From contig CALJUC010000037.1 of assembly GCA_937975585.1 (NCBI GenBank), positions 1-49,068 on the forward strand: DNA of 49,068 nucleotides, given 5' to 3'. The DNA is from an uncultured Moraxella sp. Lineage in GTDB: Bacteria > Pseudomonadota > Gammaproteobacteria > Pseudomonadales > Moraxellaceae. The translations under genes and the position numbers were made by a program. Each line of letters starts with the position of its first letter. Position 1 is the stretch's first letter. The notes under the pieces are model-generated. The model saw only the letters and a program-made list of their open reading frames with translations, did no database searches and had not been told where the DNA came from. Positions 31,237 through 42,322 of the stretch are shown here, piece by piece.

Positions 31237-31677
31237 TTAGTTGAGTTCAAATAAGAAGTTAATCGGGCCATCATTACAGCTTGATACCTGCATATTGGCA
31301 CCGAATTCACCCGTGGCGATGGTAGCGTGCTGCTGTTTGGCATACGCAATAATGTCATCAAACATCGGCTTTGCTAGGGTTGGGTGCATGGCTGGTTTAA
31401 AATCAGGACGACGCCCGTTTTGCGTATTGGCAAGTAGGGTGAACTGCGATACCAATAATAAGCCGCCGCCCACGTCTTGGACGTTTTTATCCATTTTTCC
31501 TTGTTCATTTTCAAAGATACGATAGGTGAGGATTTTATCAATCATCTTTTTGCCGATGTCTAGCGTATCATCATGTCCAAGCCCAAGATAAACCAAAACC
31601 CCTTGGTCAATAGCGCCTATAAGTTGGCCATCGACATGAACATTGGCAAAGGTGACGCGTTGAATCACGGCTTTCAT
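31237..31677 (-). CDS. dtd: D-aminoacyl-tRNA deacylase
   Basis: MKAVIQRV, SQFTL, GRRP, NDGPI. Confidence 0.97.
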   Translation of the reverse strand: MKAVIQRVTFANVHVDGQLIGAIDQGVLVYLGLGHDDTLDIGKKMIDKILTYRIFENEQGKMDKNVQDVGGGLLLVSQFTLLANTQNGRRPDFKPAMHPTLAKPMFDDIIAYAKQQHATIATGEFGANMQVSSCNDGPINFLFELN

Positions 31678-31749: not shown

Positions 31750-31855
31750 TATAGTCTTTTAAATTCACTTTAATACTTCGTCAAGCTCGCTTGCTGTACT
31801 ATTTGTACTATCTGCGCTCGCTTTCCTTGTCCTAAAATGAATTTATTTGACTATA
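31750..31855. mobile_element. Correia/NEMIS-like MITE, copy A (106 bp)
   Basis: TATAGTC...GACTATA ends with ~23-bp imperfect TIRs and terminal TA; core GCTGTACTATTTGTACTATCTGCG resembles the short Correia element core. Confidence 0.8.
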
Positions 31856-31929: not shown

Positions 31930-32763
31930 ATGACCTTATTTACCACGCTACAAAACCTTGTCCCTCAGCAAAAACTTAGCGAAGTGGCGGGCAGGCTAGC
32001 CCAAAGCCGTCATCCGGTGGTCAAAAAAATGTTTATCCGTGGCTTTGCCAGTGCGTATGGGATTAAGCTAGACGAGTACGCGCGTGGTAGCTTGTCGCAA
32101 TATGAAAGTTTTAATGACTTTTTTACCCGCGAATTAAAACCCGATGCGCGTCCGATTGATCAAAATGCCGATAATATTGTGTGCCCGGCGGATGGGATGG
32201 TTTCACAAATCGGTCAAATCAGCCAAGGCAAAATGCTGCAGGCCAAAGGTCGTTATTATGAAGTCGGGCAGTTATTGGCCGACCATGAGTTAGGTAAGAC
32301 GATGACCGATGGTAGCTTTGCCACGATTTACTTGGCGCCAACCAATTACCACCGTGTGCATATGCCATTTTCGGGTACCTTGGTAGAAACGATTTATGTA
32401 CCAGGTCAGTTGTTTTCGGTTAATAATGAAACCGCCGACAATGTGCCGGATTTGTTTGCGCGTAATGAACGCTGTGTGTGCGTGTTTGATACCGAATTTG
32501 GCAAGGCCTGTGTGGTACTAGTCGGTGCGATGATTGTGGCAGGGATTGAAACCGTAGCCACCGGCAAAATCAAACGTAGCGCAACAATTCAACGTAGAAC
32601 CCATGATTTGCCACTGCAAAAAGGTGATGAGTTGGGACGTTTTTACTTAGGCTCGACGGCGATTGTGGTAATGCCAAAACAAGCGGGTACCGCTTGGGCG
32701 CCGGGTATGGAGCATGGTGCTGTCGTCCAAATGGGGCAAACCATGGGCACGTTTATGAAATAA
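31930..32763 (+). CDS. psd: Phosphatidylserine decarboxylase proenzyme
   Basis: SFNDFFTREL, YLAPTNYHRVHMP, self-cleavage motif LGST. Confidence 0.96.
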   Translation: MTLFTTLQNLVPQQKLSEVAGRLAQSRHPVVKKMFIRGFASAYGIKLDEYARGSLSQYESFNDFFTRELKPDARPIDQNADNIVCPADGMVSQIGQISQGKMLQAKGRYYEVGQLLADHELGKTMTDGSFATIYLAPTNYHRVHMPFSGTLVETIYVPGQLFSVNNETADNVPDLFARNERCVCVFDTEFGKACVVLVGAMIVAGIETVATGKIKRSATIQRRTHDLPLQKGDELGRFYLGSTAIVVMPKQAGTAWAPGMEHGAVVQMGQTMGTFMK

Positions 32764-40023: not shown

Positions 40024-40698
40024 TTATTCAGCGGTTGGGCGTTTGGTCAATACTTCATCGACCAAGCCATAGGCTTTGGCTTCTTCAGCATCTAACCAAT
40101 AATCACGTTCAACGTCACGTGCGATTTTCTCAAGTGGTTGACCAGTACGTTCTGCCAAGATTTTATTCAAGCGTTCACGGATTTTTAGGATTTCGCGCGC
40201 ATTGATTTCGATATCGGTGGCTTGACCTTGCGCACCGCCTGATGGTTGGTGAATCATCACACGTGCGTTGGCAAGCGCGTAACGTTTACCTTTTTCACCC
40301 GCAGCTAGCAAGAATGAGCCCATACTATATGCGCCACCCATACAGATCGTTGATACGTCTGGTTGGATAAAGTTCATGGTATCGTATACCGCAAGACCGG
40401 CACTGACCGATCCGCCCGGTGAGTTGATATACAAATGGATGTCTTTTTCTGGGTTTTCTGCTTCCAAAAATAGCAACTGTGCCACAATCAAGTTTGCCAT
40501 ATGGTCTTCAACTTGGCCGGTCAAAAACACCACACGCTCACGCAATAGACGAGAGTAGATGTCAAATGAGCGCTCACCGCGTGATGACTGCTCGACCACC
40601 ATAGGTACTAAGGCTGATTGTGGTGTAGTTAAACCACGAGTCACCGTGTTTTGCACAGCGCTAGTGGCAAATGGCGAGTCTAAAAATTTTTCTAACAT
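40024..40698 (-). CDS. clpP: ATP-dependent Clp protease proteolytic subunit
   Basis: [31 protein letters not shown]. Start placed at ATG 40698 with a TAAGGA RBS. Confidence 0.97.
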
Positions 40699-40728
40699 AG
40701 TTATCCTTATTAGTACATATTCCGACTT

Positions 40729-40831
40729 TACCTTTCCCAAAAAAATACACTATCTTTTTCAAACTCGCTTACTGTACTACTTGTACTATCTTCGTTCGTT
40801 TTCCTTGATATTGTAATTTTTGGGTTTGGTA
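40729..40831. mobile_element. Correia-core element, copy B (103 bp) with different inverted arms
   Basis: Core 40759-40807 is 43/49 identical to 31781-31829. Arms TACCTTTCCCAAAAAAATACACTATC and GATATTGTAATTTTTGGGTTTGGTA form an imperfect inverted repeat ending in TA. Confidence 0.75.
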
Positions 40832-40877
40832 TTAGATAAAAGTTCTCAAGCACATAATTTAGCCAGCGTTAAGACGC

Positions 40878-40902
40878 AAAAGCCCTTATCTAATATAAGG
40901 GC
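40878..40902 (-). terminator. Terminator-like hairpin after tig
   Basis: Minus strand reads GCCCTTAT-ATTAG-ATAAGGGC-TTTT. Confidence 0.55.
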
Positions 40903-40920
40903 AGTGCAGTTAAAAACAAG
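40892..40920 (-). promoter_or_regulatory. Candidate sigma32 (RpoH) promoter for clpPX
   Basis: Minus strand reads CTTGTT-13 bp-CCCTTATATT, versus consensus CTTGAA-N13-15-CCCCATNT; clpPX is a known heat-shock target. Confidence 0.5.
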
Positions 40921-40987: not shown

Positions 40988-42322
40988 TTACATTAAGCCT
41001 TGTTGTTGGCTTGCCAATAGGTCTTGGTAAGATACGTCTTTGTCGCTTACGTTCGCTTGAGCCAATAAGTAATCAACAACTTGGTCTTCTAGTACCACGG
41101 CTTCGATGTTAGCACGTTCTTGTTTGTTGTTGCTGTAGAAATCAACGACTTCTTTTGGATCTTCGTAGTTTTCTGCCATTTCGTTGATAAAGGCGTCCAC
41201 ACGTGCTTGGTCAACTTCTAGTTTGTTGGCTTCGATGATGCTTGATACCAACACACCTAGACGAGCAGCGCGTAACGCTTGTTCTTCGAACAATTCGTTA
41301 GGTAGCATGTCTTTGCTGAAGTTTTTAGGGTCAGCACCGAATTGTTGGGCAAAACGGTTTAACATCATGTCGCGTTGACGATCGATTTCTTGCTCAAGCA
41401 TAGAGCCTGGGATTTCGATTTCGTTTTTCTCTAACAAGGCATTGAAAGTTGCTTCTTTCACTTGAGCGCGCGCTGCGTTTTTCACTTCGCGTTCCATGTT
41501 TTTGCGAACGTCAGCTTTTAGCTTGTCAAGACCGCCTTCTTTAACACCAAATTGCTCGAAGAATGCTTCGTCAAGCTCAGGTACTGCTGGGGTTTCAACA
41601 GATTTTACGTTGATTTTGAACTGCGCTTGTTTGCCTTTTAGGTTTTCAGCTTGGTAATCTTCTGGGAAAGTTACGTTGATGGTTTTTTCTTCGCCAGCTT
41701 TCATGCCTACGATACCGTCTTCAAAACCAGGAATCATACGGCCGCTACCTAGGACTAGGCTGAAGTCTTGTGCCGCGCCGCCGTCGAACAATTCGCCGTC
41801 GATTGAGCCTTCAAAGTCAAATTTCACTTGGTCGCCATTCGCTGCTGCATCTTCTTTAGCCGCGAACGTTTGACGTTGTTTTTGTAGGTTTTCAATCATG
41901 GTGTCAACGTCAGCATCGCCAACAGTGGCAGTTTGACGCTCAACGTCTACGCCTTCTAAGCTTTGTACTTCAACTTCTGGGAATACTTCAACAGTGGCTT
42001 GGTAAACCAAGAAATCGTTTTCTAGTTTTACGTCGTCGATGTTTGGCATACCCACAGCACGGATGTTTTCTTCACGAATTGCGTCAAATACGGTATCACG
42101 GATTACATCGTTGATAACTTCTTGTTGGATACCTGCGCCGTATTGAGCGCGGATGTGTGATACTGGCACTTTACCTTTACGGAAACCGTCGATTTTAGCG
42201 GTTTTAGCCACTTGTTGGATACGGCTTTCAACACGGCCTTGGATGGTGGCAACTGGTACTTTAACGGTCAATTGGGTTTCCAAGTTTGACGTTTTGTTGG
42301 TAGTGATTTGTAAATCTGACAT
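40988..42322 (-). CDS. tig: Trigger factor
   Basis: [12 protein letters not shown] domain [11 protein letters not shown]; tig-clpP-clpX synteny. Confidence 0.98.

Follow-up and report, generated by a model that had tools for sequence, protein, structure and literature searches.

Bacterial MITEs have been described as elements that are conserved at their ends and carry a disposable filling. Two described families are closest to the element considered here. The Correia element (CREE/NEMIS), with a short form of 104–108 bp, ends in 26–27-bp repeats, and passages of one account state that the Correia repeat had so far been found only in Neisseria (PMC2649163). RUP is given a length of 107 bp and IS630-Spn1-like ends in passages of another account (PMC2229807). 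Both are called IS630-derived in part of a third source (PMC2817692), and they have been reviewed as separate families; how Correia-type elements move and persist is a long-open question. From the Moraxellaceae, MITEAba12 is described, in the passages that deal with it, as an element of about 110 bp with 16-bp GGCTTTGTTGCA ends, a 9-bp duplication, ISAba12 as its parent and conservation only at the ends. REP doublets (BIMEs), which are moved by RAYT, are a further kind of structured non-coding repeat.

The window analysed here is a 49,068-nt stretch of a Moraxella-like genome (2.73 Mb in 316 contigs), among whose relatives are Moraxella osloensis records. In the spacer between tig and clpP lies an element whose purine-rich strand is the minus strand (Table 1), and which is very probably a gene-less MITE with IS630 ends and a shared, structurally selected core. 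The element works like Correia and RUP and is a member of neither, as its arms and its duplication differ. With Correia it shares the sequence of a directional core, in the same register, together with the length, the end-to-end hairpin and the existence of short and long forms. In contrast to Correia, its arms (B arms) are unrelated to the TATAG-type, its ends are not the 26–27-bp repeat, its duplication is TTA/TAA rather than TA, and its host is Moraxella-like and not Neisseria, the only host named in the passages of PMC2649163. With RUP it has only the core in common, the arms and the phylum being different. The 1,091-bp IS630 of M. osloensis has the same terminal repeats (22 of 24 positions) and a 3-bp TAA duplication, but it carries a two-ORF DDE transposase and lacks the core. 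MITEAba12 comes from the same family, is of similar size and is also non-autonomous, whereas its pattern of conservation is opposite to that of the clpP-type element. REP doublets are likewise structured and non-coding, but the clpP-type core lacks a GTAG-tagged palindrome pair and is enclosed by IS630 ends.

Table 1. Features at the two copies of the element in the window and at their neighbouring genes.
Feature	Coordinates	Strand	Basis and remarks
dtd	31237..31677	-	TIGR00256; 72 bp from copy A
Copy A, Correia-like MITE, TATAG...CTATA ends, core common with clpP copy	31750..31855	-	106 bp; model R1, 68.3 bits (training sequence)
psd, divergent	31930..32763	+	TIGR00163; 74 bp from copy A
clpP	40024..40698	-	TIGR00493 above cut-off; 30 bp downstream of element
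Target duplication, degenerate copy CTT (inferred)	40726..40728	+	Element-free contig is 106 bp (103 + 3) shorter
Whole B-type MITE, TACC...GGTA (clpP copy)	40729..40831	-	103 bp; sequence, BLAST copies in genome, fold
Partner terminal inverted repeat	40729..40751	-	TTT where the IS has AAA; longer A run
Conserved folded core	40752..40809	-	Alignment A1, model R1
Terminal inverted repeat, 5' end of purine-rich strand	40808..40831	-	22/24 identical to end of IS630-family element (1,091 bp), compared with L506
Target duplication, intact copy TTA	40832..40834	+	Direct TTA/TTA or TAA/TAA flanks of B-arm elements; element-free contig
Conserved tig-clpP spacer motif: terminator-like hairpin (40902-40882) and overlapping sigma-32-like promoter motif	40882..40920	-	Upstream of element; terminator scan
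tig (trigger factor), upstream gene	40988..42322	-	TIGR00115

A first-pass annotation of the window had described the clpP copy and a second copy, here called copy A, as elements of 103 and 106 bp that end in TA and form long stems around a common core. The stems are upheld by folding, which places both copies well past their shuffles (z -5.1 to -8.7, 0 of 200 shuffles). The sizes and the TA ends are also correct, although the TA of the clpP copy belongs to its inverted repeat and the target duplication is 3 bp. The arms of the two copies are indeed unrelated, since 1204 and 1314 of 2000 shuffles scored equally well. The distances to the ATG codons, 30 bp for clpP and 72 bp for dtd, are right as well, but the account was incomplete in that psd, a divergent gene, also has copy A 74 bp upstream of it. 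Near the stem base, the folds of both copies have a 3x3 loop. It had been taken for a conserved feature, which it is not: among 79 non-redundant elements, 3 have an exact 3x3 purine loop and 11 a loop of 2–4 nt. The A3/A3 loop of the clpP copy exists because TTT replaces the AAA of the IS in the partner repeat, and the arms are perfect, without this loop, in B-arm copy C18 as well as in the parent IS.

The core consists of a lower loop (AAGG/RAC), an 8-bp helix, an upper loop (GCAGAYA/RGCAA) and a GTAC-N5-GTAC hairpin. Between 40759-40807 and 31781-31829 the two cores of the window differ at 6 of 49 positions, and two of the six differences form the compensatory pair AAGC/GCTT to AAAC/GTTT, both as originally reported. 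Of the other four, one breaks the closing pair of the tandem GA, one changes G-C to G-U and two lie in loops. The tandem GA pairs, first read as C-GA-G/C-GA-G, are therefore C-GA-A/C-GA-G in the clpP copy, with the closing pair broken. Just beyond the 49 nt, a C>A change in the clpP copy breaks a G-C pair that is kept in 64 of the 66 rows of alignment A1. The core of the clpP copy thus has two broken pairs and one new wobble relative to this alignment, and it scores 50.1 bits with model R1, in whose training set it was included, against 65.2 for the B-arm copy C18.

The two copies are not a lone pair. BLAST of the genome returned 36 A-arm hits, among them the two halves of a single element, and 10 B-arm hits; contig ends truncate five of the latter. 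The A-arm elements measure from about 65 to 136 bp, and the element as a whole is short, non-coding, multi-copy and intergenic, lying between called genes. A-arm and B-arm cores are intermingled: the B copy C18 and the A copy C217 differ at 2 of 50 positions, and the B copy C265 has the long insert found in long A copies. No claim is made about the direction of exchange between the two types of arms. At C65:10350-10405 (G000) there is a divergent core of 39.5 bits with arms of neither type. A search of Rfam returned only tRNAs at gathering score in the window and 20 loci, and nothing at E values up to 5 around the element.

The origin of the B arms can be followed to a complete insertion sequence. 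A B-arm pattern matched 69 of 201 genomes of the family, including pairs about 1.1 kb apart that enclose a two-ORF element with HTH and DDE_3 domains. This 1,091-bp element is annotated as IS630 on the M. osloensis plasmids NZ_CP024445.1 and NZ_CP024181.1, and copies of it were found at L506:1504-2594 and L518-L520. Four IS copies are flanked by TAA/TAA, and the orthologous empty sites have a single TAA in 4 of 4 cases among the sites listed. A set of 50 loose B-arm candidate pairs included 11 flanked by TAA/TAA, 10 by TTA/TTA, 1 by TCA/TCA, 2 with inverted flanks and 26 with other flanks, many of the last being chance pairings of the loose pattern; TAA/TTA or TTA/TAA flanks did not occur among the 50. 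The direct TAA/TAA and TTA/TTA flanks and the single-TAA empty sites together show that the B-type duplication is 3 bp long. The target duplication of IS630 elements is usually TA, from which the 3-bp TAA duplication of the 1,091-bp element departs. An IS5/ISL2-type parent, guessed from the 3-bp duplication and pursued with a PF13359 search, was discarded when the parent proved to be IS630.

At 22 of 27 positions the arm of copy A agrees with a second IS630 end, which comes from a Neisseria-like genome, and at 21 of 27 with the Correia repeat. The two arm types thus match two different IS630 elements, in agreement with the earlier suggestion that different transposon ends surround a conserved core. 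The companion suggestion that the arm sequence is free of selection is not supported, the arms being transposase-type ends. BLAST of this genome's assembly yielded no full B parent IS, only a 19-bp end at the edge of contig C169 (C169:1-19). The 3' fragment of an IS630 on contig C77 (C77:1-226, L011) was rejected as parent, as its ends differ. A search for a Moraxella parent IS of the A arms gave 18 weak matches but no recognized parent, and no A-arm empty site was found at the locus tested, which is filled in all four genomes that have it. The searches likewise found no parent IS for AGAGCC-type arms or for other arm families; the Rivihabitans genome G743 has 315 AGAGCC-type arm matches, many without a partner at core distance. 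Matches of the B-arm pattern in viral contigs look like chance. In genome G014 the 1,091-bp element lies at the stop codon of a gene that reads like atpC, and at L372 and L374 (G343) an IS630 end directly abuts a long Correia element at its arm, as though it had inserted there.

Arms and fillings are exchangeable. Nine IS loci gave no model match for the core, i.e. the parent IS elements are without it. B arms with the clpP-type core occur in G000, G011, G136 and a Cardiobacteriaceae MAG. In G011 (L405, L413, L415, L419) B arms also wrap a REP-like doublet that starts with GTAG, and in several congeners (L521, L522, L524, L525) they wrap a different doublet of 116 bp. Locus L502 is among the B-arm loci with other hairpin fillings, of which there is at least one beyond the two doublets.

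The core, of about 58 nt, is the same as the core of the Neisseria Correia element. The first-pass annotation had recognized a conserved core correctly but had missed this identity. In two N. gonorrhoeae records, copy A had 35 and 32 matches (82% over 70 nt, E 3e-7), and the one examined is an element of 106 bp that agrees with published Correia patterns. A core pattern was found in 13 of 151 genomes of the family and in 9 of 401 genomes of the phylum, with 0 and 1 matches for the controls. Scanning GTDB genomes with the core gave at least 123 loci, 80 of them named, each with its own paired arms. Among the matches listed, the named ones include Neisseria, Kingella, Eikenella, mitis-group Streptococcus, Aquitalea, Accumulibacter, Glaciimonas, Diaphorobacter, Rivihabitans, Methylotenera, Mycoavidus, Silvimonas, a Cardiobacteriaceae MAG and Clostridia MAGs. 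Beyond the family, model R1 matched 14 of 149 gammaproteobacterial families, and among 121 Bacillota genomes it matched 2, one of them the streptococcal centre genome; several of the new matches are elements of about 270 bp in which the apical helix is changed yet paired. The elements of mitis-group streptococci are 107 bp long, TA-ended and multi-copy, and have the same core with a 4-nt apical loop. They are probably RUP, an assignment made by length, ends, host and copy number. A narrow core pattern had 0 matches in viral contigs, and neither a BLAST of the clpP copy on plasmids nor one of the core on E. coli genomes gave a match. A link to ERIC is therefore not shown, there being no core match in the E. 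coli genomes.

Evidence for selection on the fold was obtained from alignment A1, whose 66 rows comprise both window copies and 64 rows picked manually out of 85 non-redundant loci plus a small number of closer relatives; rows were selected by conserved motifs, gapped or doubtful ones were dropped by hand, and the counts ignore kinship. Pairing was found in 90.5% of cells, compared with 72.0% in shuffled and at most 37.9% in slid alignments, and 13 of 18 pairs have changes on both sides. The excess of further pair types is less clear, since 38 of 500 shuffles reached the count. Seven of the eight positions of the 8-bp helix have three to six standard pair types, and the loops are nearly invariant. 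Nine of the ten pairs with the highest corrected mutual information are helix pairs, and the tenth is a non-canonical C·A (49 rows)/A·G (15 rows). C·A and A·G pairs are isosteric. Next to a bulged A, a C-G (54)/U-A (12) pair covaries. A metagenome scan was run with a search pattern that left both helices unconstrained. Every pair of the apical helix was formed in 28 of the 36 non-redundant rows that contain the downstream RAC motif, compared with 4 of 15 rows without it, and the helix took the forms GTAC/GTAC, GTGC/GCAC, GTAT/ATAC and GACC/GGTC.

The mismatches of the arms bear on which strand is folded. In the outer arms of 77 of the 85 elements, the purine-rich strand has 90 G·U against 32 A·C and 94 purine-purine against 44 pyrimidine-pyrimidine mismatches, counts that ignore kinship and, for G·U, may include an addition from strand-biased mutation. 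The proposal that the purine-rich strand is the folded one holds in this sense across the family, but not for the clpP copy alone, the RNA of which folds with -23.4 kcal/mol on the plus strand and -22.9 on the minus strand and so has no strand preference of its own. The broader proposal, that selection acts on a single-stranded structure, is borne out by the covariation of the core across genera together with the preference of the arm mismatches for the purine-rich strand. The core is at the tip of a long paired stem in 79 of the 85 non-redundant elements, and it starts 38–41 nt from the element end in four arm families, an offset that may follow simply from how long the ends are. Too little signal was present in a tree built from the 58-nt cores.

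At the clpP locus itself, the tig-clpP spacer is without the element in 19 of 19 congeners. Directly upstream of dtd, copy A is also missing in 19 of 19, with three weak model hits about 1 kb away. What is conserved in the spacer is a different feature, GCCCTTAT and its hairpin, which are kept in 20 of 20 tig-clpP spacers of the genus and are followed by a T tail; the hairpin could serve as terminator, promoter or both. The overlapping motif resembles the sigma-32 consensus and is a putative promoter, and a promoter scan found no sigma-70 promoter in or near the element. In the congener G011 the spacer (L020) is 335 bp long and has other palindromic repeats upstream of the conserved hairpin, which are independent insertions. 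Four DNA runs have the element at clpP in 4 of 4 cases, with no element-free joint among the joints listed. In the RNA run X16, one contig passes over the site without the element; it is 106 bp shorter there and has TTA once. This contig has further differences and therefore is probably from another strain; a reverse-transcriptase jump or removal at the RNA level is a lesser possibility for the junction. RNA-library contigs of two studies (X14, X15) extend from clpP into the element; they hint weakly at co-transcription, but are strandless and may derive from DNA.

The orientation of the cores differs between genomes. In this genome (43 rows, three having been dropped beforehand), 17 copies are in sense and 5 in antisense in tandem spacers (p = 0.017), 9 of 9 copies in divergent spacers are nearer the sense-downstream gene, and 6 of 6 convergent copies lie within 7 bases of a stop codon. 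In other genomes, by crude ORF calls, tandem spacers have 9 sense and 22 antisense copies, so that the upstream sense orientation suspected from the two window copies is reversed or absent there, and a universal sense orientation is rejected.

We lean towards an overall reading in which the clpP copy is a MITE with IS630 ends whose separately evolving core aids spread and does not control clpP. The matches and duplications suggest that the ends would be worked on in trans by an IS630 transposase, which would place the element into TTA/TAA sites. Cores would be exchanged between arm families, as A and B cores intermingle in this genome and both have short and long forms. The purine-rich single strand, which could be DNA or RNA, would fold so as to present two purine-rich internal loops, 8 bp apart and 38–41 nt from the end, to a putative protein partner. 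Copies with intact cores would found new bursts, and resident copies would decay. Since the fold is kept across families, resident copies decay and gene orientation is inconsistent, we infer selection on the element's own spread; this role for the core is plausible, if somewhat short of probable. It is favoured by the decay of the clpP copy in spite of a likely transcribed leader and its presence in 4/4 DNA runs. Against the overall reading are the unassembled full parent IS, the CTT at the left flank of the clpP copy and the 26 of 50 candidate pairs with other flanks, and the sense bias in this genome fits an effect at the RNA level. Such an effect is the basis of a fairly unlikely alternative, in which the same MITE has a core selected as RNA that makes co-transcribed insertions tolerable, by guiding or limiting RNase III in the arms or by preventing polarity, and has no part in transposition. 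Passages of three sources report Correia hairpins as RNase III sites (PMC2649163, PMC10969869, PMC2229807), and the loops resemble RNA motifs in their invariant G·A juxtapositions, bulged A and C·A/A·G covariation; the sense bias and the bridging contigs X14 and X15 are also consistent with tolerance. However, the crude ORF calls of other genomes give the opposite bias (9 to 22), the bridging contigs are strandless and may be DNA, the RNase III action reported in such passages falls on the terminal repeats and not on the core, and it is the clpP copy, where tolerance should count, that has a decayed core.

The exchange of fillings can also be explained if the core is a hairpin that moves independently in the manner of a REP doublet, with a putative enzyme of its own, and either inserts into minimal pairs of IS ends or is taken up by them. 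The GTAG-starting doublet and the 116-bp doublet are enclosed by the same B arms, REPs begin with GTAG in a table of PMC2817692, the parent IS elements are without the core, and copy-specific outer arms in the betaproteobacterial-type G532 and tandem units (L135, L173) also fit. This explanation is nevertheless quite unlikely, as the core is nearly always at the tip of a long stem (79 of 85) at a fixed 38–41 nt from the end in four arm families, and no associated gene was seen, most loci having short flanks. The similarity of the cores might instead reflect recent horizontal spread and gene conversion, with the fold an unselected by-product. A-arm and B-arm cores that differ by as few as 2 bases do mean that recent exchange occurs, and the shuffle control ignores kinship. 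Such an origin is very improbable in view of the many pair types of the 8-bp helix beside nearly invariant loops, the paired changes of the apical helix when it is left free in the search, and the R1 matches outside the training set that keep pairing with new sequence, a result biased by the model. Hardly more credible is the domesticated clpPX processing element proposed earlier, a regulator acting through RNase III or translation control in the leader. Its position 30 bp upstream of the clpP ATG, downstream of the conserved promoter-like motif, and its presence in 4/4 DNA runs would suit that role; it is contradicted by absence in all 19 congeners at clpP and at dtd alike, by the element-free contig X16, by core pairs that are broken and not kept, by a sense orientation that is not general and by the fact that this is one of about 40 scattered copies. 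The clpP copy is an ordinary-looking insertion, from which an incidental change in clpP expression may well follow. The case cautions against taking a solitary copy in a gene leader for a regulator.

A shared, covarying and swappable core that links these elements to Correia and probably to RUP is real and apparently undescribed. In the literature covered no account was found of the shared core, of a Correia-RUP link or of the Moraxella family; the older primary Correia and RUP papers (Buisine 2002, Mazzone 2001, Oggioni 1999) lay outside it, so an earlier remark is possible. The passages of PMC10969869, PMC6382973, PMC2649163, PMC3049150, PMC3184786, PMC2817692, PMC11544213, bioRxiv 2024.01.18.576219 and PMC2229807 contain no description of a shared core. 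A keyword search of three 2026 preprints returned no MITE terms, and their supplements, like those of the 2024 MITE census, may list the motif. In these elements it is the filling that is the conserved part, and one covarying fold spans two phyla and swaps between ends with different target sites. The movement and persistence of Correia-type elements are thereby made directly testable through a 58-nt module and a named IS630 transposase. A tentative and rather doubtful extension is that Correia, RUP, the Moraxella elements and many uncatalogued repeats form one modular system, in which a universal module of single-stranded RNA or DNA, with two internal loops that bind protein or are catalytic, would hitch-hike on whatever IS ends are available, make IS-end pairs successful as MITEs and possibly let the element leave a transcript between the duplicated target bases.

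Several further arrangements were seen among the core-bearing loci. Multi-copy elements of about 255–295 bp (L589-L611; L429, L431 and L435 in G642) contain a related module whose apical helix is entirely altered yet still paired, and number 35 copies in G766 and 14 in G642. Propionivibrio and Silvimonas records (L135, L173) have tandem core-bearing units 102 and 213 bp apart. Four copies in G532 (L064, L072, L077, L080) have a common core and inner stem within copy-specific outer arms of 17–18 bp; three of the four abut a converging stop codon, and a small GCGNAGC side hairpin is present. The records NZ_CP119140.1 (L032) and NZ_CP119142.1 are labelled as plasmids, are 2.17 Mb in size with dozens of Correia matches, and are probably chromosomes.
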